This document shows positions 1 through 46,552 of a stretch of DNA of 64,000 nucleotides, in pieces. Both the position numbers and the translations under genes were made by a program. Each line of letters starts with the position of its first letter. Within the stretch, counting starts at the first letter, position 1. Origin of the DNA: a virus; IMG/VR virus record IMGVR_UViG_3300021961_008712, positions 32,001 to 96,000 of that record. One strand, 5' to 3'. A model generated the notes under the pieces. The model made no database searches. It worked only from the letters and a program-made list of their open reading frames with translations, and was not told the origin of the DNA.

Positions 1-1456
1 GGTACTAGAAAACCAAGCTAAACAAATCGTAGCTGAGGCTAACAACACAAACGTAGGTGGTGCCTCTTTCGCAGCTGGTCAAGGTGAGCAGTGGGCAGGA
101 GTAGCTTTACCACTTGTAAGAAAAGTCTTCGCTCAAATCGTAGCTCAAGACTTCGTATCTGTACAACCAATGAACTTGCCTTCAGGGCTAGTATTCTACT
201 TAGACTTTAAGTACGGTACTGCTACTAACGGTAGAAGTGACGGAGAAAACATGTACGGTAACGTAACTGCAGGTTCTAGCAAGATGGCCGCTGACTTAGA
301 TGTCGCTGGTGGTCTTTACGGAGCTGGACAGTTTGGATATTCAATCAACCAAGCAACAGGTACTGAAGTAGCTGCAACTGTAGGAGCTGCTGCTCTTAAA
401 GATGTTGGATACGATGCTGGTCTTACTTTAGGAAACTATGAGATCGTATCTATTCCTTTATCTTCTATCTCTAACTACGACGTAGAAGGATGTAGAGCAT
501 TCGTAGTATTAGATTCTGGTTCTGCTGCTGGTGTAACTCTTCACAAAGAATTTACTAAAATTTCTGGATCTAACTTGGTATTAGTACAGTCTGCTGCAGG
601 CGGTATCAATAACGGTGACAACGTAAAAGTTGTTTACCACAAACAACCAGTTGATAACGACAGAGGTGACTTCGAAGCTGATTCAAATGCTGCTGTAGAT
701 ACTTCTATCTCTATCCCAGAGATCGACGTTAAATTACAAAGTGAGGCTATCGTTGCTAAGACTAGAAAGTTAAAAGCACAATGGACTCCTGAATTTGCAC
801 AAGATCTTAACGCATATCACTCAATCGATGCTGAGGCTGAACTTACTTCTTTATTAAGCGAGTACATCTCTATGGAAATCGATCTTGAGATCTTAGATAT
901 GTTGATCAACGGTGCAAGAACAACTGAGAAATGGTCTGCAGAAAACAACAAAGTATGGAACGGATCTGCATGGTCTACTTCTACTTCTGATTTCTACAAC
1001 ACTCAAGGTCAGTGGTTCCAAACTTTAGGTACTAAAGTACAAAAAGTATCTAACAAGATTCACCAAAAAACTCTTAGAGGTGGAGCTAATTTCTTAGTAT
1101 GTTCTCCAACAGTTGCTACTATCCTTGAATCAATTCCTGGATATGCTGCTCAAACTGACGGTAACCAAGAGAAATTTGCAATGGGCGTACAGAAAATCGG
1201 TAGCTTAGCTAACAGATTCCAAGTATACAAAAACCCTTACATGACTGAAAACGTTATCCTATTAGGATTTAGAGGTTCTCAGTTCTTGGAAGCAGGTGCT
1301 GTATATGCTCCATATGTACCATTATTAATGACTCCTCTTGTATACGATCCAGAAACCTTCACTCCAAGAAAAGGTTTAATGACTCGTTACGCTAAGAAGA
1401 TGATCAGACCTGAATTCTACGGTAAAATCTTCGTTTCTGACTTAGCTCAGATCTAA
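1..1456 (+). CDS. Major capsid protein, T4 gp23-like (5' end lies before the window)
   Basis: The frame is open from nt 2 (VLENQAKQ...VSVQPMNLPSG). It carries gp23-family motifs VQPM, KTRKLKAQWTPEFAQDL..HSIDAEAEL, YAPYVPL and FTPRKGLMTRY. Confidence 0.95.
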   Translation, partial: VLENQAKQIVAEANNTNVGGASFAAGQGEQWAGVALPLVRKVFAQIVAQDFVSVQPMNLPSGLVFYLDFKYGTATNGRSDGENMYGNVTAGSSKMAADLDVAGGLYGAGQFGYSINQATGTEVAATVGAAALKDVGYDAGLTLGNYEIVSIPLSSISNYDVEGCRAFVVLDSGSAAGVTLHKEFTKISGSNLVLVQSAAGGINNGDNVKVVYHKQPVDNDRGDFEADSNAAVDTSISIPEIDVKLQSEAIVAKTRKLKAQWTPEFAQDLNAYHSIDAEAELTSLLSEYISMEIDLEILDMLINGARTTEKWSAENNKVWNGSAWSTSTSDFYNTQGQWFQTLGTKVQKVSNKIHQKTLRGGANFLVCSPTVATILESIPGYAAQTDGNQEKFAMGVQKIGSLANRFQVYKNPYMTENVILLGFRGSQFLEAGAVYAPYVPLLMTPLVYDPETFTPRKGLMTRYAKKMIRPEFYGKIFVSDLAQI

Positions 1457-1480
1457 GATAACCTTAGGACAGATTAATAA

Positions 1481-1511
1481 AGAGGGCTTGCTTTGCAGGC
1501 CCTTTTTTTTT
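1481..1511 (+). terminator. Rho-independent terminator after capsid gene
   Basis: AGAGGGCTTGC-TTT-GCAGGCCCTTT stem followed by a T tract. Confidence 0.85.
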
Positions 1512-1517
1512 ATCTTC

Positions 1518-1525
1518 TATTTATA
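1518..1525 (+). promoter_or_regulatory. TATTTATA putative late promoter
   Basis: Recurrent intergenic motif upstream of starts (see findings). Confidence 0.65.
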
Positions 1526-1562
1526 AGAAGACAAATAATTGTTCTACATAATACATAACTAT

Positions 1563-2249: not shown

Positions 2250-2253
2250 TAGC

Positions 2254-2261
2254 TATTTATA
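2254..2261 (+). promoter_or_regulatory. TATTTATA putative late promoter
   Basis: Motif lies 15 nt before the ATG at 2277. Confidence 0.65.
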
Positions 2262-2276
2262 AGAAAACTATATAAA

Positions 2277-3419
2277 ATGGCCAACGTAAGCATATGGAAC
2301 GGTACTGCTACCTTTAATGTAGGCGATACTCCTTTCGGATTCTACGATTCTGATACTACTTTTCAAGCAGATGCAGTTAAAGTAGCTAGATTTGTAGGAA
2401 CTAGACTTGGTTATCCGCTTATGGATGTAGAGCTTCAACAAGAGCAGATGTATGCTTGTTTTGAAGAAGCTATCACTACATATGGTAACGAAGTATTTCA
2501 ATATAAAATTAGAGAAAATTACTTAAATTTAGAAGGATCGAGAACTGGAAGTTCAATGAATAACCAACTTACCGACCCTACCTTAAATCGTATCATTCAG
2601 ATATCTAAACATTACGGGACCGAAGCAGGAGTAGGTGGAAATGTAACTAGACATACCGGTTCAATAGCTATAAACAGTAATCAGCAGAACTATAATTTAG
2701 ATACTTGGGCATCAGAACAAGGAATAACTGGTGGAATAGAAGTAAGAAAAGTATTTTACGAAGCACCACCAGCTATATTACGCTATTTTGATCCTTATGC
2801 AGGTACTGGTACCGGCGTACAATCGTTAATGACAGCTTTTGATTTCGGAGCTTATTCTCCTGGAGTCAATTTCATGTTAATGCCTACTTCGTACGATATT
2901 TTAAAGACTCAAGCCATAGAATTTAACGATCAAATTCGTAAATCAACTTATTCTTTTGAGATAGTAAACAACGAACTACGATTATTCCCTATACCTAGTG
3001 CTACAGGCAGTTTATTCTTTGAGTATTATAAAGAATCTGATAAAGGACAGATAAATTATGATAATAATCCTGGATATATTACTAACGTAGGTGAAGTTCC
3101 GTACTCTAATCCTAGATATAGCCATATTAATAGCGTTGGACGTCAATGGATATTTAATTATACCTTAGCTTTAGCAAAAGAAGTACTAGGATACATAAGA
3201 GGTAAGTATCAGGTTGTTCCTGTACCCGGTTCTGAAGCTACCCTAAACCAGGAAGCCTTATTAACCGATTCTAGAGCTGAAAAAACAGCACTTTTAACTG
3301 CACTTAGAGAGATGTTAGATCAAACATCACGTGGAAAACAGCTAGAAGCACAAGCAAAAGAAGCAGAAGATGTACAAAATACACTTAAATCAATACCAAT
3401 GACGATTTATATAGGGTAA
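2277..3419 (+). CDS. Neck / head-tail adaptor protein (gp13-like)
   Basis: RLGYPLMDVEL N-terminal motif and C-terminal WIFNYTLALAKEVLGYIRGKY..VPVPG...LN, as in gp13-like adaptors. Located after the capsid gene. Confidence 0.75.
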   Translation: MANVSIWNGTATFNVGDTPFGFYDSDTTFQADAVKVARFVGTRLGYPLMDVELQQEQMYACFEEAITTYGNEVFQYKIRENYLNLEGSRTGSSMNNQLTDPTLNRIIQISKHYGTEAGVGGNVTRHTGSIAINSNQQNYNLDTWASEQGITGGIEVRKVFYEAPPAILRYFDPYAGTGTGVQSLMTAFDFGAYSPGVNFMLMPTSYDILKTQAIEFNDQIRKSTYSFEIVNNELRLFPIPSATGSLFFEYYKESDKGQINYDNNPGYITNVGEVPYSNPRYSHINSVGRQWIFNYTLALAKEVLGYIRGKYQVVPVPGSEATLNQEALLTDSRAEKTALLTALREMLDQTSRGKQLEAQAKEAEDVQNTLKSIPMTIYIG

Positions 3420-4209: not shown

Positions 4210-4213
4210 GAAT

Positions 4214-5071: not shown

Positions 5072-5081
5072 CAGACTGCTC

Positions 5082-5089: not shown

Positions 5090-5144
5090 TTAAACGGTGA
5101 AACTTCACCTGGTTCTCCTACTTATAATATTATAACTGAAGTAA

Positions 5145-8100
5145 ATGGCAAAGTTCACCGGTGAAATATCAGGTTCGTTAGCGTTTAAACAGGGCGGGGT
5201 TGTACAAACCCAGATGGTCCCTGGTTTAAACTCGTTAGCGCTTACTGGTTCCTTAAATATCACAGGATCTCAGCTTACTCTGAATGGAAGAAATATCTTA
5301 TTAGAGATAGACGCTCTTTCAGCAGGTTCTGATCCTGATATTGGTACGTTAAGGCTACATTCCGGGTCTATGTTAATTTATACCGGTTCAAATGATGCTA
5401 GAGTACAGAGAATAGAGAACTTAACTGGAAGTATACACCAATTAAATGCTTCAACTAGCTCATATTTCTTAAAAAGTGATTCAGCCAACGTAGTATCCTC
5501 TTCTAATCAGATTATAGAACTAGGATTCAATAGAGATGTAATATCTGGATCACAACAAATTATAGACTTAGGATTTAATAAAAATGTAATATCTGGATCT
5601 CGACAAATTCAAGATTTAGGATTCGTTACTTCTTCTAATATTGCAGATTACGACGATCTTTATAATGTTCCTTCTGGAATTCTTAGTTCTTCTATTCAGC
5701 TAACTACTTTAGGCTTTATAACAGGGTCTAGCTTTTTTGAATTAGACAATATCCCCGTAGATCTAGTATCTAGCTCAGCTCAAATACAATCTTTCCTATT
5801 TGGTACAACTACTAACTTCGGAACAGGAGTAGTTTCTGCTTCTAAATTCTCTGGAGATGGTTCTGGGCTTACAAATATAAGTGTAGGACAAGTAACTTCT
5901 ATAAAAGAAGATTTTGATAATGCATCATCAGTAACTGTTAACCATAATTTTAATAGCCCAAATGTAAATGTAGCAGTATACGACAGTAACGGATTCCAAT
6001 TACTTCCCAGCTCAGTTCAATTAACTGATAATAATACTGCTGTTGTTACATTCGATAGTAATACTTCTGGATATGCTGTAGCATCTCTAGGAGGACATAT
6101 ATTTTCTGGTTCTTCTGCATGGGAAAACTTAACTAACGTACCTTCAGGTATTATTTCTTCTTCTGCTCAAATTTCTGCACTTGGATTTGGAGCTGGAGGA
6201 AGCGGAACACCATCAGGAACTGTATCGTCTTCTGCTCAAATTATAGAATTAGGATTTATAACAGGTAGTACTTATCAAGATTTAGTAAACATACCTGCTA
6301 ATATCATTTCTTCTTCTGCCCAAATTGCTAATTTAGGATTTGGAGGAGGAAATATAGCGCCTTCTGGTACAATATCGTCATCTGCTCAAATTTTAGACTT
6401 AGGATTTGTAACTGGAAGTGATTTTAATACGACATTAAACATACCTGACGGATTAATATCTTCTTCACTGCAAATAGCAGCGTTAGGATACTTAACCTCA
6501 TCACATTCAGATGTAAACGGGCTCAATGCTAAGACAGGTTCTTATGCAACGACTGGTTCAAACAGTTTTGTAGGTACCCAGACAATAACTGGTAATGTAA
6601 TTCCTGGAGTTTCTACTAATGATTTAGGAAGTCAAGCAGCTCCTTGGCAACACTTGTACATTTCTTCTGGGTCTATCAAATTCGTAAACCCAGACGGTAC
6701 AGTACTGTCTTCTTTTAATAATCAATTTGATGGAAATAGGATAATTTCGAATACCGAGCATCCTTTATTTAATTCCTTTAATCCAGGCTCTAGCACTACT
6801 ATAGAAGACTTCTTAAATGCAGTTTTTTATCCAAATACTGCCCCAACTATCTCTACTGGTAATCAAACTATAGCCGAATATACAGCTAATGGAACTTCTA
6901 TAGTAACTTTAGCAGGGTCTGATGCAGAGTCTCAAGCAATAACATTTAGTATTGACGATTCTTATACAGATGGATACGTAATAGTTGATAACGGAGTACT
7001 TAAATTAAATGTACTACCTACCGCAACAGCTTTTAATACAGATAACAGAGGAGATGGAACCTTAGCTCACCCTGTTATAGTAAAAGCAACAGATACAGTA
7101 GGAGCTTCTTCTACTAAAACAATATACATTAGAGTAACACCTAATGAAGCACCAGTATTCAGACATCCTAACGTAGGAAGTAACGCAATATCTTCTTATT
7201 CTGTTTCTAGAAATGAAAATGCTAGTGCAGGAGAAGTAACTAAGATATATTTTACAGATGCAGAAGGCGATAACATCACCATTAACTCGGGATCTGATTT
7301 AAACGGACACTTTAGTATTTCAAAATCATCTAACTATGTAACTATTACTCAAGTAACAGCATCTTTAGATTATGAAAATATTACTCAATATAATATGAGT
7401 ATAACAGCATCTGATTCTCATTACGAGGATGGTGATGATGCAGATTCTTTTATTGCTATACCAATTACTATTAATGTTACCGACAACACTCAACCAACAG
7501 TTAATGATCAAACATTAACCGGAGTAAACGAAAATAGTTCTGATGGAGCATCTGCTGGTACAATAACAGCAACAGACCCAGAAGGAGATACGGTAACATT
7601 TAAAAGTGCAAGATTCCATAGCCAACAATTGGATGGAGTAAATGTACCTACTGGTTCATACGGCGGTACATCTCAAAGTGATCCAACTGAAGATGCATTT
7701 AGTATATCATCAACAGGTACTGTTACTAGAAAAGTAGGAGTATATTTAAACTCTGATCTAGTTAATAAAGCTATATATGAAGTAACAGTTACTGACCCAT
7801 ATAATAACGGTTCAGATAAAGGCTACATATCTATCCCTATAGTAGATGATACCGCTCCTACGATAAGCGGAGATACAACCTTATACGTAATTGAATCCGC
7901 AACAAGTGGTCATGCAATATACGATAACTCGAACGGATTCTCAGGAACTACTTCTAGATTTACAGCTAATCAAACTGTAACTTGGGCAGTGAGCTCTTCA
8001 AATGATTTTGCTATAAGTTCAACTGGATATTTAACTCTTGCTAGAGATATTTCTGGTTCAGCAGATGTTGGAGGAGATCAATTGAGCGGTATAGTTACTG

Positions 8101-9659
8101 CTACTAATACTTTCGGTACATCTGCTACTCAAGCATTTACAGTTAATATAACAGACAACGTTGCACCGACAATTACGTTTACAAATACAAGTGCTAACTT
8201 AAATACTAACAAAGCAATTCCTGGTAATAATTTAGTTACTATGACCTTTGCAGATTTAGTTAACTCTGATGCTGTAGATTTGAATTCATTTTCTGCTTCA
8301 TTTGGCGGTCATGATTTAACTATAGTAGAAAGTGGAGCCTCAAGAATAGTAAGAGCTAATAGTAACTTAGCAGCAGGTACTTATAATGTTACTGCATCAA
8401 TTGCTGACGTGGAAGGATTTGAAACTAGAACTTCTTCTCACGCATTTACAATTGCTCAAGCAGTAGTTGGAACATTGACCACTAACGGTACTTTCTACAT
8501 AATAGAATCAGCTGAGAATGGTGCATTAATTAGAACTAACAGTAACGGTAGAACAGGTACTCAAGCAGATTTAGAAGTTAGCTACTCACCTAATTACGGC
8601 GGTCAAGCAGTTCAAGCTTATACTTCTTCTAATGCTGCAATAGTAGTAGCAAGCGATGGAAACTTAAGTCTAGGACTTGACATCAGTGGCTCTGCAACAG
8701 GTTCAGGAGATACAATTACCTCAAATATAACGTTCCAAGATCAGTATGGCAATGTAGGGTCAGGTAGCATAACAGTCAACGTTGTAACCAATCAAGCACC
8801 CTCAGTAACAGTTAGTGAACAATCAGGACTAGAAACAGATACGATTTCTGGTTCATTAGTAGCTACAATAAGCGTATCAGATGCAGAATCAGATTATCCA
8901 ATTACTTTAGCATTATCTGGAACAGACGCTTCAAGTTTTACTGCAACTTCTAATAACGGAGACGGTACTAGCTGGAATATAGTAGCAAATACAGCTCTAT
9001 CAGCAGGTACATACAACTTTACAGCTACTGCTACAGATGCATTTGGTAAGACGGGAACAGATACAGCAACTATAACTGTAGAACAGTCAGCAGACTATGG
9101 ACTTGTCTATGTATATACATCTACTTATGGTTCAGATGCCGGCTTTGCAGCTAACTACTTAGGAGTAATGGGAGGAGCTACAGTTAATAGCGACACACCA
9201 CCTGAAGTTACTTCCTATACAGCAAATACTTTATCACCATATTATAAATTTAAAGCAGGAGACGTAGGAAGTTCTACTATAAGTTTAGCAGGTGGAGCAA
9301 CAGCAACACTTAGAGCAAGCGGATCTGGCGCAGGATTAGATCAAGTACTAAGTAGTATAGGTTCAATTAGCGCTGCAGAAACAGGACAGGTAATAATCGT
9401 CTATCCATCAGGATCAGATATGACAGTACCTACCTCAGTACAAGAATCATTTAATAGCACAGCAGGTGGTGCTGTACCAGCTATGAATGTAGATGGAAAT
9501 GGATACGGAATCGAATCAGGAGTCATTCACTCTTTAGTATTAGATTCTGCTCATTTAGGATATAGTGAGTGGTTTGTATTTGGACGTAAGTCACAGAATG
9601 CAATAGCAAGCTCATTTAATATAAGATTAGTAAACGCAAGCGGTAGCTTACCGTCATAA
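5145..9659 (+). CDS. Large virion fibre/adhesin with N-terminal SSSAQI repeats and cadherin/Ig-like domains
   Basis: Repeats of NIPSGIISSSAQI..LGF. Cadherin-like motifs LDYE and (D/N)xxP(T/V) linkers (PNTAPTI, PNEAPVF, DNTQPTV, DDTAPTI, DNVAPTI, TNQAPSV). Confidence 0.75.
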   Translation: MAKFTGEISGSLAFKQGGVVQTQMVPGLNSLALTGSLNITGSQLTLNGRNILLEIDALSAGSDPDIGTLRLHSGSMLIYTGSNDARVQRIENLTGSIHQLNASTSSYFLKSDSANVVSSSNQIIELGFNRDVISGSQQIIDLGFNKNVISGSRQIQDLGFVTSSNIADYDDLYNVPSGILSSSIQLTTLGFITGSSFFELDNIPVDLVSSSAQIQSFLFGTTTNFGTGVVSASKFSGDGSGLTNISVGQVTSIKEDFDNASSVTVNHNFNSPNVNVAVYDSNGFQLLPSSVQLTDNNTAVVTFDSNTSGYAVASLGGHIFSGSSAWENLTNVPSGIISSSAQISALGFGAGGSGTPSGTVSSSAQIIELGFITGSTYQDLVNIPANIISSSAQIANLGFGGGNIAPSGTISSSAQILDLGFVTGSDFNTTLNIPDGLISSSLQIAALGYLTSSHSDVNGLNAKTGSYATTGSNSFVGTQTITGNVIPGVSTNDLGSQAAPWQHLYISSGSIKFVNPDGTVLSSFNNQFDGNRIISNTEHPLFNSFNPGSSTTIEDFLNAVFYPNTAPTISTGNQTIAEYTANGTSIVTLAGSDAESQAITFSIDDSYTDGYVIVDNGVLKLNVLPTATAFNTDNRGDGTLAHPVIVKATDTVGASSTKTIYIRVTPNEAPVFRHPNVGSNAISSYSVSRNENASAGEVTKIYFTDAEGDNITINSGSDLNGHFSISKSSNYVTITQVTASLDYENITQYNMSITASDSHYEDGDDADSFIAIPITINVTDNTQPTVNDQTLTGVNENSSDGASAGTITATDPEGDTVTFKSARFHSQQLDGVNVPTGSYGGTSQSDPTEDAFSISSTGTVTRKVGVYLNSDLVNKAIYEVTVTDPYNNGSDKGYISIPIVDDTAPTISGDTTLYVIESATSGHAIYDNSNGFSGTTSRFTANQTVTWAVSSSNDFAISSTGYLTLARDISGSADVGGDQLSGIVTATNTFGTSATQAFTVNITDNVAPTITFTNTSANLNTNKAIPGNNLVTMTFADLVNSDAVDLNSFSASFGGHDLTIVESGASRIVRANSNLAAGTYNVTASIADVEGFETRTSSHAFTIAQAVVGTLTTNGTFYIIESAENGALIRTNSNGRTGTQADLEVSYSPNYGGQAVQAYTSSNAAIVVASDGNLSLGLDISGSATGSGDTITSNITFQDQYGNVGSGSITVNVVTNQAPSVTVSEQSGLETDTISGSLVATISVSDAESDYPITLALSGTDASSFTATSNNGDGTSWNIVANTALSAGTYNFTATATDAFGKTGTDTATITVEQSADYGLVYVYTSTYGSDAGFAANYLGVMGGATVNSDTPPEVTSYTANTLSPYYKFKAGDVGSSTISLAGGATATLRASGSGAGLDQVLSSIGSISAAETGQVIIVYPSGSDMTVPTSVQESFNSTAGGAVPAMNVDGNGYGIESGVIHSLVLDSAHLGYSEWFVFGRKSQNAIASSFNIRLVNASGSLPS

Positions 9660-17454: not shown

Positions 17455-17457
17455 AAC

Positions 17458-20453: not shown

Positions 20454-20650
20454 GTGCACAAACAGAAATTAATTTAGATCAAGAAAAACTTCTCATTGAA
20501 GAGAGAAAAGTTAAAGCATTAGAAAAAATTGCTATGTCTTTAGACGCATTAACTGTATGGTTTGAAGAAATAGATAAAGAAGATTGGGATAGTAGAATCC
20601 AATTCTATTTAGCGGAATGGCATAAAAATCTTGTAGAAGGACAAAAATAG
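20450..20650 (+). CDS. Small hypothetical protein
   Basis: ATGA-coupled 66-aa ORF. Confidence 0.6.
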   Translation: MSAQTEINLDQEKLLIEERKVKALEKIAMSLDALTVWFEEIDKEDWDSRIQFYLAEWHKNLVEGQK

Positions 20651-20651
20651 T

Positions 20652-30278: not shown

Positions 30279-30279
30279 T

Positions 30280-37044: not shown

Positions 37045-38933
37045 AAAACTTATACCTTGTACAAGTAGCCGACAAATATGGTCCAAATAGCTTTCTGCCT
37101 GTAGCGATTAGCTATCAGTGGATGTTTGCTAGTACAAGTAAGTTAGTAAAAGAAAACTTTAGAGTAGCTGATGTACTTATTGAAAAAAAGAATCCACATA
37201 AATATGTTGACTCTATAGTAGACGAACCTCACGTTATAATGCTCAGTTCTTACGTATGGAATTGGGAATATAATAAAGTCTTAGCTAGACTAATTAAAGC
37301 TAAATTCCCAAACTGTCTTGTAGTTACAGGTGGACCTAATGTAGATAAAAGAGATAAAGACTTTTTTACTAACTATCCTATGTTTGATATAGCAGTCATG
37401 GGCGAAGGAGAACAAGCATCAAAAGAGATCTTAAAAAGATATCTCAAAAAAGAATCTTATAAAGGTATTCCTCATGTATTTCCAAAAGGAGGTGAGCTAT
37501 GCCCATTACCTCAAAGAGCTGAAGACTTAAACATAATACCCTCACCTATACTTACAGGCTTTTATGACTGGATAATAGAAAGAGTTGAAGCAGAGCACGG
37601 ACCTCAAATGTGGCAGGTAACTTATGAAACACTAAGAGGTTGTCCCTATAGGTGTTCTTTTTGCGATATCGGAGACTTATACTGGCAAAAGCTAAAACTT
37701 TTTGACCTACCTAGAGTAGAAAAAGAAATAGATTGGATGTCAGATAGAAAAATAGAATATGTAGCAGTTTGCGACTCCAATTGGGGATTAATGCCTAGAG
37801 ATGTTGATATAACAAAGTATGTAATTAAAAAGAAATTAGAAACTGGATTTCCTAAATTCTGGGATGTAACCTGGGCAAAAGCTAACTCAGACAGAATCTA
37901 TGAAATTGCAATGCTTGATAAAAAAGCCGGTACTCGTTTGTTTAAAGGAGTTACTTTTGCTATGCAATCCCTTCATCAAGAGACCTTAGATGCCTCTAGA
38001 AGGTTAAATTTAAAGTATGAGGATGCTTTTGAATACTTAATTAAGTACCGTGAAGCAGATATACCTACTTACTCAGAGTTAATCTGGCCTATGCCTGAAG
38101 AAACTTATGACTCTCTTAAAAGCGGGATACAGAAACTTATTGATATTGGTCAAAAAGATTTCTTAATGGTACACCCACTTGTTTTAACTTTTAATGCTGA
38201 AATGGGACAACCTGCATATAGAGAAAAATACGGGTTATTATTTAAAGAAGTTCCTTTAGATACTTTTTACCTTAGTGTAGAAGATTTAGAAGACTATATC
38301 GTTGAAAAGACATGGGGTGTAATTGGAACTAACACAGCATCCCCACAAGAGGTATATAGAGGTCATTTATTATCCCATCTATTAATAGTTATGTACTATT
38401 ACGGCTGGGGTCATTATCTTCTTGAATATCTTAAATCTAAATATAACATTGATCATGTAGATGTTATAGAAAAAATGTTAGAATACTTTATGGAAACTCC
38501 TAGTTTAATTGGATCTGAATTACAAGAGACTATTAATGGACTAACAGGAGTATTTAATGAACAAAAATTTTGGGGTAGACAGGTTTTAGGCGACGATGAT
38601 GTATTTTGGGAGTACAAAGGAGCGACTAGTATAGTATTTTTTCAAAACAGAGATAAACTAAGTTTAGAACTAAACAATTTCTGTAAAGAAGCCCTTAATA
38701 TAGATGCATCAGACGCTATTAGGCTCAACTTAGATATGTGTCACGATCCTAATCGTAATTATCCTCTTACTAACACATACGAGGAAGATACGGTACTTAA
38801 CTGTTTAAATAGTTATGATAAGACTATAACGATAGACCACTACGACAAAACAGAAATGACAGAAAAAGAGTTTTTTCATACGGCCTATCACTATCAACGT
38901 AAAAATAGATATTGGAGATGTCAAATTTTATAG
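37041..38933 (+). CDS. Cobalamin-dependent (class B) radical SAM enzyme
   Basis: B12-domain motifs SSYVWN, GGPNV and GEGE, then RGCPYRCSFC. Confidence 0.9.
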   Translation: MKNLYLVQVADKYGPNSFLPVAISYQWMFASTSKLVKENFRVADVLIEKKNPHKYVDSIVDEPHVIMLSSYVWNWEYNKVLARLIKAKFPNCLVVTGGPNVDKRDKDFFTNYPMFDIAVMGEGEQASKEILKRYLKKESYKGIPHVFPKGGELCPLPQRAEDLNIIPSPILTGFYDWIIERVEAEHGPQMWQVTYETLRGCPYRCSFCDIGDLYWQKLKLFDLPRVEKEIDWMSDRKIEYVAVCDSNWGLMPRDVDITKYVIKKKLETGFPKFWDVTWAKANSDRIYEIAMLDKKAGTRLFKGVTFAMQSLHQETLDASRRLNLKYEDAFEYLIKYREADIPTYSELIWPMPEETYDSLKSGIQKLIDIGQKDFLMVHPLVLTFNAEMGQPAYREKYGLLFKEVPLDTFYLSVEDLEDYIVEKTWGVIGTNTASPQEVYRGHLLSHLLIVMYYYGWGHYLLEYLKSKYNIDHVDVIEKMLEYFMETPSLIGSELQETINGLTGVFNEQKFWGRQVLGDDDVFWEYKGATSIVFFQNRDKLSLELNNFCKEALNIDASDAIRLNLDMCHDPNRNYPLTNTYEEDTVLNCLNSYDKTITIDHYDKTEMTEKEFFHTAYHYQRKNRYWRCQIL

Positions 38934-38942
38934 ATAAACAAA

Positions 38943-40007
38943 ATGATATACGACTCTAAAGATAGCTTTCTCTATGTAAACGTATGGGAATGGTTAACCC
39001 CAGACGATGTACTAAATTTTATTAATTTACATAAAGTAGATAACCTAGTTTTTGATTCTACTTCTGAACCGTTTTTATTTGACCCCAACAATCGCTTGGA
39101 TGAACTTTTTTTTGATGGATTAAATAATCTCAATTTAAGAAAGTGTAATATATTTACAGGTCATTTTATAGATAATGAAACTATAAACAAATTCCCTAAT
39201 TTAAAATTCAGTACTTTTCCATTCATTTTTCTAAGTAAAACAGCAGCATGCTCACATACTGGTTTTAATTTTCCTCTTTTAACTTTTGATAAAGAGAACA
39301 TAAAAACTTTATTTCATTCCCATATAGGTAGACCTAGAGAGCATAGATGTATGCTTATAGACTACTTAAGTAAGGAAGGTTTATTTGATTACTCTACTAT
39401 GAGCTATGTAATTAATATAAGTGAATATATTGGTTCAAATAACAAGGAACATATAGACGGTTATTTTAAATACAAATATTGGACAGAAACTAAACTTATT
39501 GATAGTAGTGATAAAGGAGTAGAGACTGCTTTTATTGACAATTATGCTAAACCTGGAGAACAGTACATTAATAGCTTATTTGATTTAGTTCAAGAAACCA
39601 GCCCTGATCATATATTCTGGACAGAAAAAACCTGGAAGCCTGTTTTATATGAAAAGCCTTTCATTATTTGGGGAGCACCAAAAATTAATAGTAGATTAAA
39701 AGAGTTTGGATTTAAATTATTTGATTCTGTAGTAGATTATAGTTTTGACGAAATAGAAGACACAGAGGAAAGAGCTAAAGCATTAGTTAGTGAGTTAAAA
39801 AGACTTTCATCCGGTAATTATCAACAAATGTACAGTGATATGAGAGATGTTTGTGAAACAAATAGAAAACAGGCTATAGAGATTATTTATAATGAAAAAT
39901 CTGAGAGACCTATTTTTTCTCAAATAAGCAAACTAACCTCCAGATTTAGTCAACTTATCTTTAATTTTGACGAATTAAATATATGTCAACACCAGATACA
40001 ATTATAA
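38943..40007 (+). CDS. Putative GT-B glycosyltransferase, paralogue 4
   Basis: GRPREHR...LVQET...FWTEKTWKP...KPF...GFKLF..DYSFD. Confidence 0.55.
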   Translation: MIYDSKDSFLYVNVWEWLTPDDVLNFINLHKVDNLVFDSTSEPFLFDPNNRLDELFFDGLNNLNLRKCNIFTGHFIDNETINKFPNLKFSTFPFIFLSKTAACSHTGFNFPLLTFDKENIKTLFHSHIGRPREHRCMLIDYLSKEGLFDYSTMSYVINISEYIGSNNKEHIDGYFKYKYWTETKLIDSSDKGVETAFIDNYAKPGEQYINSLFDLVQETSPDHIFWTEKTWKPVLYEKPFIIWGAPKINSRLKEFGFKLFDSVVDYSFDEIEDTEERAKALVSELKRLSSGNYQQMYSDMRDVCETNRKQAIEIIYNEKSERPIFSQISKLTSRFSQLIFNFDELNICQHQIQL

Positions 40008-40008
40008 G

Positions 40009-41091
40009 ATGTCACCTAAAGTAAGAATAATAAATCAGTGGAGTAATGAGTATAATGTCGCCGACTATCAATGGTGGTACAATGATTTATTAGAGCAAAA
40101 TTACGATGTTCTAATTTTTAACGGACTATGGGAATGGGAATTTTATCATCCTTGGGATCATAAAAACGAATGGAAATATAAATTTGAAAAATTAGTATAC
40201 GAAAGAGGAGTACAAATTTATATACTCCATGGTACAAACGGTCCTATACATAAAGGAAGAGTAAAAACTACTGTACCTGGAGATACTGTTTATATGCACT
40301 TTCCTTTATTTTGGCTATACTGTACAGGGTTTTATGGAAGAGGAGCCGTAGATGATCCTGAAGGACATATCTTAACATATGATCTTGAACATAATAAAAG
40401 ACATTCTCAACCCATCAACCCAGATACATTGTTTATTAGCCTAGTTAATAAAGCACACGACCATCGCTGTTATGGAATGGATCAACTTGCTAGGTATAAG
40501 ATACTTACAAACGGAGTAGCTAAAAATGGAATTATAAATTATAGCTGGCACGATCAGTTAGATCAGAGTAAAGACTACCCATTCGTGTATTGGAAGTACC
40601 AAAAGACCTCTTTATCTGATCCTTATTCTGTGAATTTAGATTCATATATGACTACCCCTGATGAACAATTTAGTTCTGCATTTAATATAGTTTTTGAATC
40701 TCATATGCACGAAACATTTTGGACCGAAAAAACATTTACTGCAATACTACTAGGTAAACCCTTTTTAATTTTAGGCGGGGAAGATATGAATATCGGTCTT
40801 AGTCCTTATGGATTTGAAAAATTTGATGAGGTTATCGATTACAGTATTGATTTAGATCCAAATTATCAATCTAGATACAGTAGATATGCTCAAAACCTAG
40901 CAAATATAAAACAAGAATATTTGGGTAAAGAAAAAGAACTTTATAATCTACTTAAACCAAAAGCAGAACACAATAAGCAACTAATGATTACAATTCTTAA
41001 AGAAAAAAAATTTATACCTCCTGCTATCAAAGAGCTTTTAGAAAGATACAATGTAGCAAATAAAGTGGGAGGATTTGATTTTTTACTTTAA
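40009..41091 (+). CDS. Putative GT-B glycosyltransferase, paralogue 5
   Basis: NKAHDHR...IVFES...FWTEKTF...KPF...GFEKF..DYSID. Confidence 0.55.
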   Translation: MSPKVRIINQWSNEYNVADYQWWYNDLLEQNYDVLIFNGLWEWEFYHPWDHKNEWKYKFEKLVYERGVQIYILHGTNGPIHKGRVKTTVPGDTVYMHFPLFWLYCTGFYGRGAVDDPEGHILTYDLEHNKRHSQPINPDTLFISLVNKAHDHRCYGMDQLARYKILTNGVAKNGIINYSWHDQLDQSKDYPFVYWKYQKTSLSDPYSVNLDSYMTTPDEQFSSAFNIVFESHMHETFWTEKTFTAILLGKPFLILGGEDMNIGLSPYGFEKFDEVIDYSIDLDPNYQSRYSRYAQNLANIKQEYLGKEKELYNLLKPKAEHNKQLMITILKEKKFIPPAIKELLERYNVANKVGGFDFLL

Positions 41092-41096
41092 AAAAG

Positions 41097-41125
41097 TTGT
41101 TTTTTTGATATTTATTTTATATATT
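41097..41125 (+). promoter_or_regulatory. Sigma70-like promoter TTGTTT-N17-TATATT
   Basis: Exact 17-nt spacer, intergenic, upstream of the dehydrogenase. Confidence 0.6.
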
Positions 41126-41149
41126 GTTATTAACTAAAACACAGTTTTC

Positions 41150-42319
41150 ATGAAAATAGGATTTATAGGAGTCGGCAAATTAGGAAAAGACGCAGCCGAA
41201 GTAATGGCAGAAAAACACGACGTATTAGGATACGACGTTGCCGACGTCAAACCAGAAAATTTTCAAATGGTACCTACGATCAAGGATGTATGCCAAGATC
41301 GAGAAATGATTTTCATTGCCGTACCTACTCCACACCACCCAGACTACGATGGTAGATATCCTACTGCTCATTTACCTAACAAAGACTTTAACTATACGAT
41401 AGTAAAAGATGTATTAACAGAAGTAAATAAGCATGTAACTAAGGATCAACTTGTAGTTTTAATTTCAACAGTACTTCCCGGAACAATCCGTAGAGAGTTT
41501 ATTAACTTAATTCCTAACGGTAGATTTATTTATAACCCATACTTAATTGCTATGGGAACAGTAAAGTGGGATATGGTTAATCCTGAAATGGTTATTATTG
41601 GAACTGAGGACGGTTCTATGACCGGTGATGCACAGTTACTTTTAGATTTTTATAGAACATTTATTAAAGAAGGTACTAGATATGAAGTTGGTACTTGGGA
41701 TGAAGCAGAAGGAATTAAAATTTTCTATAATACATTTATCTCTACAAAAGTTGCACTAGTTAATATGATTCAAGACGTTGCTGAAAAATCAGGTAACATG
41801 AATGTAGACGTAGTAGCAGGAGCATTAGAGAGATCAACTTATAGAATCTTAGGACCAGCTTACATGAAAGCAGGAATGGGAGATGGTGGTGGTTGTCACC
41901 CAAGAGATAATATCGCTTTGCGCTATATGGCTGAAAGTCTAGATTTAGGTTATGACTTGTTTGATGCAATTATGAATGCTAGAGAAGTACAAGCTAAAAA
42001 TATGGCTCAAAAGTTAGTTGATATTGCTAACGACAGTAAACTACCTATCATTATTCTAGGCAAAGCATATAAACCAGACGTAGACTATATTGACGGTTCT
42101 TCTTCTATATTAGTCGGTCATTATTGTTCTGAATTGGGTATAGTACCTGAATTTGATCAACCTAATCCGTACAAAGCAGTTTACCTATTAGCACATATGG
42201 GTAAGGATCATGATTATGATTTCCCTGCTGGTTCCGTAGTTGTAGATCCATGGAGAGCGTTTATACCAAAGAACGACTCAATTGATGTAGTGCACTATGG
42301 CAACACCAGAATACAATAG
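41150..42319 (+). CDS. ugd: UDP-glucose/GDP-mannose 6-dehydrogenase
   Basis: GVGKLG, AVPTP, STVLPG, AEGIK..YN, GGGCHPRD and AYKPDVD. Confidence 0.9.
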   Translation: MKIGFIGVGKLGKDAAEVMAEKHDVLGYDVADVKPENFQMVPTIKDVCQDREMIFIAVPTPHHPDYDGRYPTAHLPNKDFNYTIVKDVLTEVNKHVTKDQLVVLISTVLPGTIRREFINLIPNGRFIYNPYLIAMGTVKWDMVNPEMVIIGTEDGSMTGDAQLLLDFYRTFIKEGTRYEVGTWDEAEGIKIFYNTFISTKVALVNMIQDVAEKSGNMNVDVVAGALERSTYRILGPAYMKAGMGDGGGCHPRDNIALRYMAESLDLGYDLFDAIMNAREVQAKNMAQKLVDIANDSKLPIIILGKAYKPDVDYIDGSSSILVGHYCSELGIVPEFDQPNPYKAVYLLAHMGKDHDYDFPAGSVVVDPWRAFIPKNDSIDVVHYGNTRIQ

Positions 42320-43286
42320 GCTTTTTGCAGTAGGATGTAGTTATACTAATTACGCGACTCCTACCTACGCTGACATACTAGGGCTGAATTTCTACAAAAC
42401 AGTCAACATGGGTAAATCAGGCGGAGGTAATAGGTACATATTTAATACACTTTGTTATGTATTTAATGAACTTAAGCCTAAAAAAGGCGACGTAGTAATA
42501 GCCCAATGGTCAGGAATTGCTAGATATGATTCAATTATAGGACAAAGTGTAGATTGGTCTACCCCGGGAAACTTAAATTGGCAAGGTATCTATCCTCTAG
42601 ACGAATTTGTTAAGCCTTGGTTTAATATAGTGGAAAGAGCGTACGAATATGTTAGCTATATTACTGCCATCGCCGCACTCGCCAAACAATCAGAAGCCAC
42701 TTTTATTAATACTAATATGTTTGACCCGTGGCATGGTATGTTTTACGGAGAACCTTTTCAAACAGAAGTATTTAACTCCCAACTCAAGTACATTAATAGA
42801 TACTTTCCAAAAGAATTAATGCAAAGAACTTGTCAAGAGTTAAACTTTCCAACAAGTATCGAAGAATACCAGTGGCAAGTTGGTCCTTTCGCGCAGCCTT
42901 ATTTATTTAATAAGACAGGCCAAGGTATATACGATACTGATCTTCCTGATGGTACTCAAAGAGATACTCACCCTACCACTAAAGGACATCACGAGTACGC
43001 TAAGTATATAGATAAATTATATGAATTAGGATGTAACCATATATATTCTGATGCTGTTACAGCAGTAGTAGATAAAGTACATGCAGATCAAACAGACCCT
43101 ACATTCTCCTTTATAAAATCTAGAAAAGATAAAATGTACGAATCTTCGGCGAAATCAAACGTAAGTTATGACCCACAGTACTTTTACCATAAAGTAAAAG
43201 CCAAGGGTCATTATTTTCAACGCCACCATTCTTTAGATATACATGGATACTCTAATGACCCGGTAAAGAGATGGCTAAAGCAGTAA
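42297..43286 (+). CDS. SGNH hydrolase-like protein
   Basis: AVGCSYT, NMGKSGGGN, QWS..R.D and DTHPT..GH. Confidence 0.65.
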   Translation: MATPEYNRLFAVGCSYTNYATPTYADILGLNFYKTVNMGKSGGGNRYIFNTLCYVFNELKPKKGDVVIAQWSGIARYDSIIGQSVDWSTPGNLNWQGIYPLDEFVKPWFNIVERAYEYVSYITAIAALAKQSEATFINTNMFDPWHGMFYGEPFQTEVFNSQLKYINRYFPKELMQRTCQELNFPTSIEEYQWQVGPFAQPYLFNKTGQGIYDTDLPDGTQRDTHPTTKGHHEYAKYIDKLYELGCNHIYSDAVTAVVDKVHADQTDPTFSFIKSRKDKMYESSAKSNVSYDPQYFYHKVKAKGHYFQRHHSLDIHGYSNDPVKRWLKQ

Positions 43287-43927
43287 TTATTTCTGGACTT
43301 TTAGATAGTCTTTCTGAAAATATTATTCCTATAATCAAGAATAAGGATGTATACGTTCATACCTGGTATAACAAAGAAAATGAACGGTGGATAAACAAAC
43401 TCAATAGATTTAAAAAATACACAACCAATCTGTATATAACTGTTGATGAACCGAAGTATGAATCTAAACTCTTCTCTCATTTCTATTCTACTTGGAAAGC
43501 ATTTAATATTATTCAAGATGCTAGTAAATATAACCTGGTAGTTAAACTTAAACCTAATTTAGAGACAGAGAAGATAGAATACCAAGGTAATATAGAAGAT
43601 TACTTTTATAAAGCATACATATCTAATAGACCTTTATTAAATAACTATACATATAAAGACTGTATGTACGGCAGTATATACTATAAGACTATAGATGAAA
43701 GATTTTTTTCCGGACACCCGTTGGTATTTGAAAAAATATTTCGTATCTTAGAAGAAGAACTAGATATTAAAATGCAAAACATTAATCAGGAACTATCTAC
43801 CAAGTACGGTAACTACGAAGGAAGCCTGTTTTGGACGAAATGGTTTGATAATTTAAATATTCCTATTATTCAAGATACTGATTTAGTTCTACCTAATAAT
43901 ATACGTAGTAAATATGAAACTTACTAA
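43271..43927 (+). CDS. Hypothetical protein, possible glycosyltransferase-like
   Basis: AVIISG...DVYVHTW...Y.LVVKL.P pattern seen in viral glycan clusters. Position in the cluster supports this. Confidence 0.45.
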   Translation: MAKAVIISGLLDSLSENIIPIIKNKDVYVHTWYNKENERWINKLNRFKKYTTNLYITVDEPKYESKLFSHFYSTWKAFNIIQDASKYNLVVKLKPNLETEKIEYQGNIEDYFYKAYISNRPLLNNYTYKDCMYGSIYYKTIDERFFSGHPLVFEKIFRILEEELDIKMQNINQELSTKYGNYEGSLFWTKWFDNLNIPIIQDTDLVLPNNIRSKYETY

Positions 43928-44408
43928 TGAAGAATGTATCCAACTAATACAACAAAGTGAATCTCATGATTGGCATAGAGTAGAAAGAATTTTAACTAAG
44001 TACTTTATTAACTACAACGTCACGTTACCAGAATCTATTATTAGTAAAGTAAAAGAGTACACAAGAAAAGAACTGAACATTGAACTTTTAAACCTCGACT
44101 TCAAAGACTCAGCATTTTTGAAATATACAAAAGGAGACGGTTTCGAAAGACATAATGATAACAGGTCAGATAATCCACAAAATGCAAATAGGGTATATAC
44201 ACTAAACATAAGATTAAATAATGAATACAAAGGTGGAATTTTCTACTTAGATGATAAACCGTACATTAAAGAGGTAGGAGAAATATATTCGTACCGTTCT
44301 ACTATGTTTCATCATGTAAGTGAGGTTTCCGAAGGAACTAGGTATTTACTTGCTCTATTTATTAGAGTAAAAGATTACGATTACGAAAAAGCAAAGCAAA
44401 TTATATAA
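43914..44408 (+). CDS. 2OG-Fe(II) oxygenase (P4H-like)
   Basis: KY..GD.F..HND, L..EYKGG.F and HHVSEV.EGTRY. Confidence 0.88.
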   Translation: MKLTNEECIQLIQQSESHDWHRVERILTKYFINYNVTLPESIISKVKEYTRKELNIELLNLDFKDSAFLKYTKGDGFERHNDNRSDNPQNANRVYTLNIRLNNEYKGGIFYLDDKPYIKEVGEIYSYRSTMFHHVSEVSEGTRYLLALFIRVKDYDYEKAKQII

Positions 44409-44409
44409 A

Positions 44410-44664
44410 ATGGCAAACACTATTAAACTTACAGAACAAGAAATAAGTACACTAAGAAATATTTCCGACAAGTTTACTGCGATGAAAGCAGAATTTGGTA
44501 ATATTTATTTACAGGAAATTAACCTCAAAGAACGTAAAGAAAGAATAGAACTTTTCTATAAGGAATTACAACAAGCTGAGCAAAATATTGCTAAAGAGCT
44601 TCAAGATAAGTACGGTAAAGGAACAGTCAATACAGAAACTGGAGAATTTACTAGCTTAAGTTAA
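44410..44664 (+). CDS. Small coiled-coil protein
   Basis: Heptad pattern. Ends with KYGKGTVNTETGEF. Confidence 0.65.
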   Translation: MANTIKLTEQEISTLRNISDKFTAMKAEFGNIYLQEINLKERKERIELFYKELQQAEQNIAKELQDKYGKGTVNTETGEFTSLS

Positions 44665-44690
44665 GAAATAAATTTATTTAGTTCTTTTAT

Positions 44691-44716
44691 AGGAAGAGGT
44701 TTCGGACCTCTTTCCC
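44691..44716 (+). terminator. Hairpin (AAGAGGT-TTCGG-ACCTCTT) closing the enzyme island
   Basis: Inverted repeat with a UUCG-type loop. Confidence 0.6.
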
Positions 44717-44780
44717 TATTTATAAATGTTGATAGAACAGTTACATAGAAAACGTTTTCGATTAACAGACGATATTTATT
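44717..44780 (+). promoter_or_regulatory. Tandem TATTTAT(A/T) motifs before the tail sheath gene
   Basis: TATTTATA at 44717-44724 and TATTTATT at 44773-44780. Confidence 0.6.
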
Positions 44781-44809
44781 ATAGAACGAATAATCTAATT
44801 TAAGATAAA

Positions 44810-46552
44810 ATGGCAGAATCTTTAATCTCCCCAGGGGTCTTATCAAGAGAGCAAGATAGATCTTTTATTGCACCAGCAGCACTAGAGGCAGGCGCAGCAT
44901 TTATTGGCCCAACAGTACTTGGACCAGTAGAAGAACCAACAGTAGTAACATCATACGGTGATTACCAAAGAAAGTTTGGTGTAACTTTTGCTTCTGGTTC
45001 TAACAAATATGAATTTTTAACTTCCCTAGCAGTTAAGTCTTACTTTGAGCAAGGCGGTAATACAGCATTGATCACCAGAGTAGTAAACGGCTCCTTCTCA
45101 GGTGCTAGTAACACTAACATTGCTGCTAATGACGGCGGAAGCGCTCCTTTTACTTTAAAAACTCTTAGCAAAGGATCACTTCTAAACAACTCTACTGGAG
45201 CTAGCGATCCTGGTTCTTTAAACAGTGACGGTTCATTAGTATCTGGTTCAGAAGACAACATTAGATGGGAGATTGCAAATGTTGACGCTAACGCAGGTAC
45301 TTTCTCTTTAATCGTAAGAAGAGGAGATGACAGTACTAAACAAAAAACTGTATTAGAATCGTTCAATGATTTGAGCCTAGATCCTAACAACGAAGGCTAC
45401 GTTGCCAGAGTAGTTGGAGATCAGTATAAAACTAAATCAACTGATGGAACTTCTACTTATATTTCTACTGTAGGTTCTTATGTTAATAGATCAAGATACA
45501 TCTATGTTAACTCAGTTGATAGACAGACAATTAACTACCTTGCAAACGATGGAGTAAACATAAGAGATAACGCTTATACTGGTTCCCTTCCAGTAGCTAG
45601 CTCAGGTTCGTTCCACGGAGCACAGGGTGATTTATATCAAGCTTCTGCACCTAATAAGCACTTTAGCGCTATTACAAACGGAAACACTCAAGGTCTTGAT
45701 GCAGCAGATTATGCAGATGCTATCTCGATCTTAACTAACCAAGATGAATATGTATTCAATATCGTATCTACTCCTGGTTTGATTTATAACTTTGGAGATC
45801 ACAAAACTCAATTAGATAGCGTAATTTCCTTAGCGTCTTCTAGAGGCGATTGTATCGCAGTAGTAGACCTTTCTCCTTACGGAAGCACAGTATCTAACGC
45901 AGCTGGACATGCTTCTACAGTAAACAGCTCTTATGCAGCTTCTTACTGGCCATGGTTACAAATGGCAAGCTCAACTGGTAAGTTAGAATTTGCTCCTGCT
46001 TCTGTAGTGATTCCTGGAGTATATGCATTTACTGATAGTGCAGCAGCACCTTGGTTTGCACCTGCTGGTTTAACAAGAGGAGGAATTCCTAACGTAATCC
46101 AAGCAGAAAGAAAACTTACAAGATCTCAAAGAGATACTCTATATGCAGCAAACGTTAACCCAATTGCTACATTCCCAGGAAGCGGTATTTCAGTATTTGG
46201 TCAGAAGACTTTACAGAAGAAGAAATCAGCTCTTGATAGAGTTAACGTAAGAAGATTATTAATTGACCTTAAGAAATTCTTAGGTGATCAAGCTAAGTCA
46301 TTAGTATTCGAACAAAATACTATTGCTACTAGAAATAGCTTCTTGGCAGCAGTTAATCCATACTTAGAATCAGTAGTACAGAGACAAGGTCTTTATGCTT
46401 ACAGAGTGGTAATGGACGATACTAATAACACAGCCGATGTAATCGATAGAAACCAATTGATAGGACAAGTATATATTCAGCCAGCTAAAACTGCAGAATT
46501 CATTACCCTTGACTTCGTAATTGAACCAACTGGAGCATCATTCGGCGCATAA
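44810..46552 (+). CDS. Contractile tail sheath protein
   Basis: SPGV..RE.D, YWPW, PWFAPAG..RG, NPI, GQKT, RVNVRRL and P.KTAEFI. Confidence 0.96.
   Translation: MAESLISPGVLSREQDRSFIAPAALEAGAAFIGPTVLGPVEEPTVVTSYGDYQRKFGVTFASGSNKYEFLTSLAVKSYFEQGGNTALITRVVNGSFSGASNTNIAANDGGSAPFTLKTLSKGSLLNNSTGASDPGSLNSDGSLVSGSEDNIRWEIANVDANAGTFSLIVRRGDDSTKQKTVLESFNDLSLDPNNEGYVARVVGDQYKTKSTDGTSTYISTVGSYVNRSRYIYVNSVDRQTINYLANDGVNIRDNAYTGSLPVASSGSFHGAQGDLYQASAPNKHFSAITNGNTQGLDAADYADAISILTNQDEYVFNIVSTPGLIYNFGDHKTQLDSVISLASSRGDCIAVVDLSPYGSTVSNAAGHASTVNSSYAASYWPWLQMASSTGKLEFAPASVVIPGVYAFTDSAAAPWFAPAGLTRGGIPNVIQAERKLTRSQRDTLYAANVNPIATFPGSGISVFGQKTLQKKKSALDRVNVRRLLIDLKKFLGDQAKSLVFEQNTIATRNSFLAAVNPYLESVVQRQGLYAYRVVMDDTNNTADVIDRNQLIGQVYIQPAKTAEFITLDFVIEPTGASFGA

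Follow-up and report, generated by a model that had tools for sequence, protein, structure and literature searches.

Chloroviruses make their own capsid glycans independently of the host machinery and attach them as N-linked chains at atypical Asn sites. The serine-rich repeat adhesins Fap1, GspB, and PsrP are modified by the GtfA/GtfB O-linked N-acetylglucosamine (O-GlcNAc) transferase, a cytoplasmic GT4-family system encoded by adjacent GT-B genes of about 500 and 440 amino acids (aa) in which GtfB is non-catalytic, while the cytoplasmic heptosyltransferases Aah and TibC O-glycosylate many Ser residues of the β-rich adhesins AIDA-I and TibA, in a short loop between strands. In proteoglycans, the glycosaminoglycan attachment site is a Ser-Gly with acidic flanks, often SGxG, served by XylT and beta4GalT7. 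To our knowledge, virion glycosylation by phage enzymes has so far been established in mycobacteriophages, and we know of no acceptor rule for it. Here, we analyze the tripeptide [ST]GS (Ser or Thr, Gly, Ser) in the virion proteins of a marine T4-like phage, starting from a 64,000-nucleotide stretch of DNA (the window) that spans bases 32,001-96,000 of its 169,750-bp genome (IMG/VR record IMGVR_UViG_3300021961_008712). An earlier note on this DNA had proposed that [ST]GS is the acceptor for an initiating transferase encoded by a glycan island in the window. The excess of [ST]GS that it described is confirmed, and its interpretation is partly supported: the idea that the tripeptide is a functional tag on exposed virion proteins survived every test that we ran, but the specific mechanism did not. 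On the comparisons presented below, a tandem pair of GT4-like glycosyltransferases (GTs) encoded outside the window is a better candidate enzyme than the transferases of the island.

The two enzymes of this pair recall the GtfA/GtfB system in being GT-B proteins encoded by adjacent genes, and the Ser-x-Ser acceptor of that system, with a small residue at x, may resemble the phage motif in its wider form [ST]-[G/S/A]-S. They differ in that both phage proteins keep the EX7E motif (invariant at E313/E321 and E293/E301), that the NCBIfam GtfA/GtfB models do not match either of them, and that the phage sites are isolated tripeptides rather than long repeats; a PDB match to Gtf1 (4PQG, E 0.009) is marginal. 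The hydrophobic strand flanks of the phage motif resemble the Aah/TibC acceptor, but those enzymes belong to another family, and a loop context is seen here for one of four sheath sites, in a model of medium confidence. The closest solved relative of both GTs is B736L of chlorovirus NY-2A (PDB 3OY2/3OY7; E 1.3e-15 and 7e-5), although the similarity spans only the C-terminal nucleotide-sugar half. We know of no acceptor for B736L.

In mycobacteriophages, phage-encoded glycosyltransferases glycosylate virions (Freeman et al. 2023, Cell Host Microbe 31:1216, as cited in PMC12619734 and PMC12801897), and PMC12619734 places the glycans at the C-termini of capsid and tail-tube subunits. The system proposed here is similar in that soluble, phage-encoded GTs would decorate the phage's own structural proteins in the cytoplasm. 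It is unlike it in having dispersed internal tripeptides, no sites in the tail tube, and unrelated enzymes, and in being proposed from sequence. A proteomic study of marine phages, in a set that includes no phages of this clade, reports only phosphorylation and acetylation (PMC12014285), and the literature searches that we made found no published description of such a motif.

Results

[ST]GS is in excess in the outer virion proteins

We recounted [ST]GS from the translations of the open reading frames (ORFs) of the window, all of which lie on the + strand, and every per-protein count given in the earlier note proved exact. The largest number is found in a 1504-aa fiber-like protein with a cadherin-type domain (5145..9659), which has 25 sites where shuffled sequences lead one to expect 5.6, with 15 of them within the first 520 residues. 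The 269-aa fiber-associated protein (9670..10479) has 6 (0.9 expected), as do the 399-aa paralogous fiber protein (11976..13175; 1.1 expected) and the 928-aa fiber with a C-terminal S74 intramolecular chaperone (14105..16891; Pfam Peptidase_S74, 4.5e-17; 2.2 expected). Three sites are present in the 446-aa tail fiber protein (10541..11881; PHROG 892; 1.1 expected), and a 186-aa paralogue with the same N-terminus as the 10541 and 11976 proteins (13505..14065) has 2. The gp13-like head-tail adaptor of the neck (2277..3419; PHROG 211, with Pfam Phage_T4_gp13 matching its homologues) has 3 sites, all TGS (0.28 expected). The tail sheath (44810..46552; Pfam sheath domains at 297-571) has 4 (0.95 expected), at residues 62, 145, 257, and 265, all N-terminal to the conserved core. 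Finally, the C-terminal part of the major capsid protein (2..1456; Gp23 family, Pfam 2.7e-69) has 2 in its variable region (0.45 expected), and these are internal, at residues 116 and 132 of the 428-aa reading, with positions that are not conserved.

The comparison with composition-shuffled proteins that the earlier note had proposed leaves the excess in place, with 57 sites observed in the structural set against about 14 expected. SGS is the most over-represented tripeptide of this set (37 vs 7.0 expected, z=12) and TGS occurs 20 times (6.8 expected), with the permutations SSG, GSS, SGG, and GGS at or below expectation. Local patches rich in Ser, Gly, and Thr are rejected as the cause, as the expectation stays at about 14, with 57 observed (z about 12), when residues are shuffled only within windows whose length is reduced from 100 to 12. 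A first-order Markov model, which takes the SG and GS dipeptides into account, explains 31 of the 57 structural sites. The variants that the earlier note had also called abundant fared differently: SAS (4 vs 6.6 expected) and TAS (4 vs 6.3 expected) are not enriched, and SSS is enriched after two hydrophobic residues and not otherwise.

The whole genome encodes 109 [ST]GS against 37 expected, and 90 of these fall within 15 virion-type proteins (19 expected), giving a four- to fivefold excess in outer head, neck, sheath, and fiber proteins. The remaining proteome is at expectation (19 vs 17.7). The absence of the motif that the earlier note reported for the tail tube, tape measure, island, and replication proteins holds within the window, where the remaining 49 ORFs have 0 sites against 6.3 expected, but does not extend to a genome-wide depletion. 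Our negative set from the inner tail, comprising the tail tube, a hub-like protein, and the 1426-aa tape measure (46590..53447; PHROG tail tube and baseplate hub), has 0 sites against about 1.3 expected, and the ORFs from 46590 to 63602 together have 0 against 2.9 expected. [ST]GS is an ordered motif, scattered over unrelated folds and restricted to the outer proteins of the virion.

Many different 9-mers encode the 109 sites, and codon usage in them is ordinary, which rules out a DNA-level motif and indicates selection on the peptide rather than on a DNA word. By flanking sequence they form 99 groups, so that recent duplication of repeats, which could apply to only about 10 of the 109 sites, explains few of them.

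Two other regions of the genome drew attention during these counts. A 469-aa protein encoded at genome 127,771-129,180 has no family match and contains 5 [ST]GS (0.38 expected), all hydrophobic-flanked, and may be an unrecognized virion protein. Genome 133,711-135,941 encodes two proteins with signal-peptide- or lipoprotein-like N-termini; one of these, of 500 aa, has a low-complexity stretch of Thr, Ser, Gly, and Asn that produces five trivial [ST]GS hits.

The motif has hydrophobic flanks and is re-created at new positions

In 54-60% of sites, the residues at -1 and -2 are hydrophobic, compared with a 30% background. Among sequences of the form hydrophobic-hydrophobic-[ST]-x-S, x is G in 40 cases, S in 26, A in 5, and any other residue in at most 3, and in the rest of the proteome x is G only once. 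The preference at x together with the flanks means that a better description of the motif is hydrophobic-hydrophobic-[ST]-[G/S/A]-S. It is often found at module boundaries, namely after the MATWKK-hhV strand (h, hydrophobic) of three paralogous fibers, after immunoglobulin (Ig)-like domains, and within NIPxG...LGF modules. The 1504-aa fiber is built of repeated NIPxG-hh-SSS-xQI..LGF-h-TGS modules and Ig-like domains ending in GGH-hh-SGS, and the 10541 and 11976 fibers have in common the N-terminus MATWKK-hhV-SGS and FILLNSGSANPD, the latter also being a site of the motif. An Ig-like domain of about 80 aa (PHROG 21918; ...VTHNF..KNV.V.VYD....I.P..V......V.V.FD.STSG.VVV.KGGH) recurs in the fibers at 5145-9659, 11976-13175, and 13505-14065, with hh-SGS after each copy.

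Conservation was followed in neck, sheath, and capsid homologues from 79 related IMG/VR loci, in which the sites exceed expectation 7.4-fold, 4.8-fold, and 2.6-fold, respectively. The 18 sheath homologues have 80 sites (16.5 expected) spread over 33 alignment columns, and the 34 capsid homologues have 54 (21 expected) over 24 columns. On the alignments, this spread looks like turnover of a favored short motif, with the column count inflated by misaligned variable domains. The neck family is more fixed, in that 84 of its 131 sites fall in three conserved columns; among 50 homologues, 37 have [ST]GS at site 127 and 26 have TGS at site 90. No [ST]GS is present in T4 gp13. For the 446-aa fiber, 25 homologues, the most divergent of them 55% identical, all retain S10-G11-S12 and G361-S362, and site 285 is SGS in some and SAS in others.

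Structural models add limited context. In the AlphaFold model of the sheath (predicted local distance difference test score, pLDDT, 65; medium confidence), site 62-64 forms a two-residue hairpin turn between strands 59-62 and 65-68, and the remaining three sites fall in low-confidence segments. The monomer model of the 446-aa fiber is poor (pLDDT 59; predicted template modeling score, pTM, 0.26) and, since each of the three sites falls in a segment scoring under 50, says little about their exposure; in it, SGS 10-12 lies directly before helix 13-27. PDB sequence searches with the fibers returned nothing usable.

The excess does not follow the glycan island

The island of the window (17960..44408, + strand) covers 26 kb between the fiber and sheath genes and contains no [ST]GS. 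By Pfam and NCBIfam matches, and for the GT10-like genes by the earlier note, it encodes on the sugar-transfer side a DUF6734 protein, a GT2-like protein, two GT7-LamG proteins whose GT7N/GT7C domains are confirmed by Pfam, and five GT10-like proteins. Its other genes encode a methyltransferase, three radical S-adenosylmethionine (SAM) proteins, a B12-dependent radical SAM C-methyltransferase of the KedN5 type, a DegT fragment, an amidinotransferase-like protein, two short-chain dehydrogenases/reductases (SDRs), a nucleotide-sugar dehydrogenase, and a 2-oxoglutarate (2OG) oxygenase. The KedN5-family match (37041-38933; B12-binding radical SAM, 207 bits, below the cut-off of 700) points to a C-methylated sugar made by the island, and, taken with the LegC/PseC-like aminotransferase fragment, suggests a pathway to unusual amino and C-methyl sugars.

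The island keeps its place and gene order in 14 related loci. We compared these with 19 loci in which the sheath gene directly follows the fibers and no island gene was detected. The excess of [ST]GS is as high or higher without the island, with an observed/expected ratio of 4.0 (1.34 sites per 100 aa) in the 19 island-less loci against 3.2 (0.84 per 100 aa) in the 14 island loci. Homologues of GT7-LamG, DUF6734, the GT2-like protein at 19608, and the GT10-like protein at 34373 were not found in four relatives that are at least 90% complete, nor in Flavobacterium phage immuto, and all of these keep the motif excess; for GT7-LamG, this means absence from four of six complete relatives with equal excess. 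What the glycan clusters of those relatives have in common with the island is limited to generic SDR, DegT, and dehydrogenase folds. Since the excess persists without it, the island is not the determinant of the motif, and the idea that [ST]GS is the acceptor of an island transferase is not borne out. Immuto was set aside as an island-less control, as it has a glycan cluster of its own along with the GT4-like pair.

The earlier note had further envisaged a proteoglycan-like coat. The phage does have Ser-Gly dipeptides and, as that note stated, GT7-family domains, but it lacks the acidic cluster and SGxG preference of glycosaminoglycan attachment sites, and its motif is independent of the GT7 genes. 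Asp and Glu make up 9.2% of the residues within 6 positions of the sites (11.1% background), hydrophobic residues make up 35% of the same flanks (30% background), and [DE]..SGxG occurs only 10 times in 8,779 aa. No island ORF has a Pfam match to a xylosyltransferase or to Branch, and a supply of uridine diphosphate (UDP)-xylose is not supported, with the SDR at 31146 reaching 59.7 bits where the UDP-xylose synthase model has its cut-off at 294. The gene at 41150, which the earlier note called a UDP-glucose dehydrogenase, matches only the generic nucleotide-sugar dehydrogenase subfamily, at 146.7 bits, below the cut-off of 189.8.

A conserved GT4-like pair is found together with the excess

The GT4-like pair is encoded outside the window by two tandem genes, the first for a GT-B protein of 480 aa (genome 140,916-142,358) and the second for one of 430 aa (genome 142,360-143,652). 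It is followed on its 3' side by a 149-aa gene, a 207-aa GT2 (weak SunS-family match), a TylF-like O-methyltransferase, NeuB (255 bits), a polysaccharide pyruvyl transferase, and a cytidylyltransferase of the cytidine monophosphate (CMP) type. These genes and three more GT2 belong to a second glycan cluster (genome 138,000-157,000; L136), which looks like a nonulosonic-acid pathway. With the island, it brings the genome to at least 10 GT-like genes and to more than 40 kb of glycan genes, of which 26 kb lie within the late structural block. The module nuclease, 65-aa gene, GT, GT, 149-aa gene, GT2 is kept in 94-121 of 121 loci, and the two adjacent GT-B genes are conserved in 120-121 of them. 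Our IMG/VR scans for the pair returned only relatives at least 50% identical, and two distant GT representatives that we looked up are on short contigs without virion genes. The genome has no ThyA-type hydroxymethylase, so DNA glucosylation of the T4 kind does not suggest itself as the task of these enzymes.

Each of the six relatives that are at least 90% complete has both genes side by side, at 41-72% identity, as do immuto and Microcystis phage Mel-JY01, and the motif is in 3-5-fold excess in all of these phages; the pair also occurs in four partial contigs. Measured in proteins rich in Ser, Gly, and Thr or in the motif (structural proteins for T4), the observed/expected ratio is 4.7 in this phage and 3.2 in Mel-JY01, both with the pair, and 1.5 in Syn33, 1.7 in RHph_I46, and 0.7 in T4, where the pair was not found. 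CJLB-10, in which the pair was not found either, shows no comparable excess. These four phages exclude the possibility that the excess is a general property of phage fibers. Taken alone, the split separates one clade, down to Mel-JY01 with a capsid 51% identical, from outgroups.

Two further phages were informative. Rhodothermus phage RM378, with a capsid 37% identical, has a divergent tandem pair, of which the first gene is matched at E 4e-55 and an adjoining 435-aa ORF matches the second weakly; in its motif-rich proteins the excess is 5-fold, and the sites have hydrophobic flanks like those described above. In the uncultured phage LR756508 (484 kb), whose capsid is 50% identical and whose sheath is 48% identical, the 121 kb examined contain the first gene of the pair but not the second. 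Its ratio is 1.4 overall, and it has 0 sites in the neck protein and in the 824-aa sheath, where the sheath homologues of pair-bearing phages have 1-9 each. RM378 and LR756508 provide one contrast that cuts across the phylogeny.

Further similarities to the second GT were noted along the way. Mel-JY01 (PP395634.1, about 5.2-6.0 kb) and the contigs behind L039 and L084 carry ORFs of 1234, 1250, and 752 aa with a weak GT-B-like segment, 26% identical to the second GT, and the Mel-JY01 ORF adjoins the most [ST]GS-rich fiber genes. On the metagenome contig of P0265, a radical SAM/SPASM gene and a DUF6734 gene, of families also represented in the island, flank a distant homologue of the second GT, indicating that island families and the GT-pair family travel together elsewhere.

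Gene order and neighboring genes

The genes of the window follow the order Gp23-family capsid, PhoH, gp13-like adaptor, fiber block, glycan island, sheath, tube, hub-like protein, tape measure, and replication genes, with ORFs of 1504, 269, 446, 399, 186, and 928 aa in the fiber block. The nearest cultured phage is immuto, with 80% DNA identity in the capsid gene only. Two small proteins of 182 and 160 aa (16906-17940), neither with a family match, are kept just before the island in all island-bearing loci; the second consists of 15% Ser and 19% Thr yet has 0 [ST]GS. Elsewhere in the genome, 102,143-102,736 and 150,609-151,163 encode small proteins that start with h-h-ALPRTGST, like the 3'-phosphoadenosine-5'-phosphosulfate (PAPS)-binding loop of sulfotransferases, with a weak match to Pfam Sulfotransfer_3 (E 0.007).

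Discussion

We favor, tentatively, the reading that the motif is an acceptor tag for O-glycosylation by enzymes of the phage, in which the conserved GT4-like pair makes the first transfer and the island provides sugars particular to the lineage, and judge its chance to lie slightly below even. By this mechanism, the tag hydrophobic-hydrophobic-[ST]-[G/S/A]-S would be kept and re-created on outward-facing proteins (the capsid insertion, the neck, the outer sheath domains, and the fibers), and a broad clade of aquatic T4-like phages would keep the same tag. Its Ser or Thr, at the end of a β-strand, would be the acceptor and would be O-glycosylated in the cytoplasm, either ahead of assembly or in the course of it. 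Initiation would most likely fall to the tandem pair (genome 140,916-143,652), acting on proteins, and the 26-kb island would make or add clade-specific unusual sugars, C-methylated and aminated, providing a variable outer glycan rather than the attachment. What argues for this reading is an excess that is ordered, local, and set at the amino-acid level, found in 99 contexts on unrelated folds, with turnover of positions and restriction to outer proteins. The control phages that lack the pair, the six of six relatives that have it, the contrast between RM378 and LR756508, the lack of a ThyA-type enzyme among the genes found, the kinship with B736L, and the amount of the genome given to glycan genes add to it.

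Several observations weigh against acceptor-tag glycosylation. Co-distribution of motif and pair rests on essentially one broad clade and the single informative contrast between RM378 and LR756508, and of the latter just 121 of 484 kb were examined. The hydrophobic flanks, the invariance at the fiber N-terminus and junction, and the sheath hairpin are also compatible with a role in structure only, and the interchange of G, S, and A in mid-motif might be more than a strict sequon permits. A PD-(D/E)XK nuclease gene lies beside the pair in 114 of the 121 loci, which hints at a nucleic-acid context for these enzymes, and the GT clusters could instead act on host envelope glycans.

The most serious rival, with a chance that we put only somewhat lower, is that the motif is an unmodified structural idiom, with [ST]-[G/S/A]-S after a β-strand forming a tight turn, a helix N-cap, or an inter-module junction in β-rich, trimeric outer proteins. 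Such an idiom would pass down along with the proteins and travel as modules are shuffled, and finding it together with the GT pair would reflect coincidence at the level of the clade. It would account for the near doubling of hydrophobic residues at -1 and -2, the sites at module boundaries (the WKK-hhV strand, GGH-hh-SGS, LGF/NIP), the invariant S10-G11-S12 and G361-S362 of the fiber, the modeled positions in a sheath hairpin turn and right before a fiber helix, and the three columns that hold most neck-family sites; moreover, every phage with the excess belongs to one broad major capsid protein clade. However, other T4-like phages make the same folds without the motif, and LR756508 retains the folds while having no sites in its neck and sheath proteins. 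The number of distinct contexts and the high positional turnover in sheath and capsid also speak against a structural idiom, and exchange of Gly for Ala or Ser is unlike a turn that requires glycine.

A different modification (phosphorylation, acylation, or a change made by a radical SAM enzyme or 2OG oxygenase) or a recognition site for an assembly factor, with no glycan involved, appears improbable. It would leave the same signs of selection on a short motif, and the phage has three non-B12 radical SAM proteins, a 2OG-Fe(II) oxygenase, methyltransferases, and two sulfotransferase-like proteins, but the radical SAM and oxygenase genes sit in the island, which does not track the motif, and no conserved kinase or acyltransferase candidate turned up, in an analysis that gave this idea no dedicated examination. 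Least probable of all, to a degree that we would call remote, is the mechanism of the earlier note, in which GT7 initiates a proteoglycan-like Xyl-Gal linker from UDP-glucuronic acid and UDP-xylose. The two GT7N/GT7C-LamG proteins and the nucleotide-sugar dehydrogenase of the island made it attractive, as did the place of the island between fiber and sheath genes, syntenic in 14 relatives. The comparison of loci already largely refutes it, given an excess equal or higher without the island, the four candidate transferases missing from four complete relatives and immuto, the lack of an acidic or SGxG context, and no xylosyltransferase or UDP-xylose synthase that could be assigned.

A broader form of the glycosylation proposal is that of a clade-wide code, in which the GT4-like pair would read the tag at strand ends on every outward-facing virion protein and swappable islands would build hypervariable outer sugars; we regard this as conceivable, with somewhat less assurance than the acceptor tag itself. 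Even if the motif is only structural, it would still be a useful marker of outer virion proteins in the clade. The cultured phages immuto, Mel-JY01, and RM378 make the acceptor code directly testable. If it is true, a three-residue code with a conserved enzyme pair, found in thousands of contigs of aquatic phages, would allow virion glycosylation to be predicted from sequence and would explain the tens of kilobases of sugar genes in these phages. A glycan shield would then cover T4-like phages that rank among the most abundant in aquatic habitats, some of them infecting Flavobacteriia, Microcystis, and Rhodothermus, with a bearing on adsorption, stability, and the recognition of virion proteins by host defenses or grazers.

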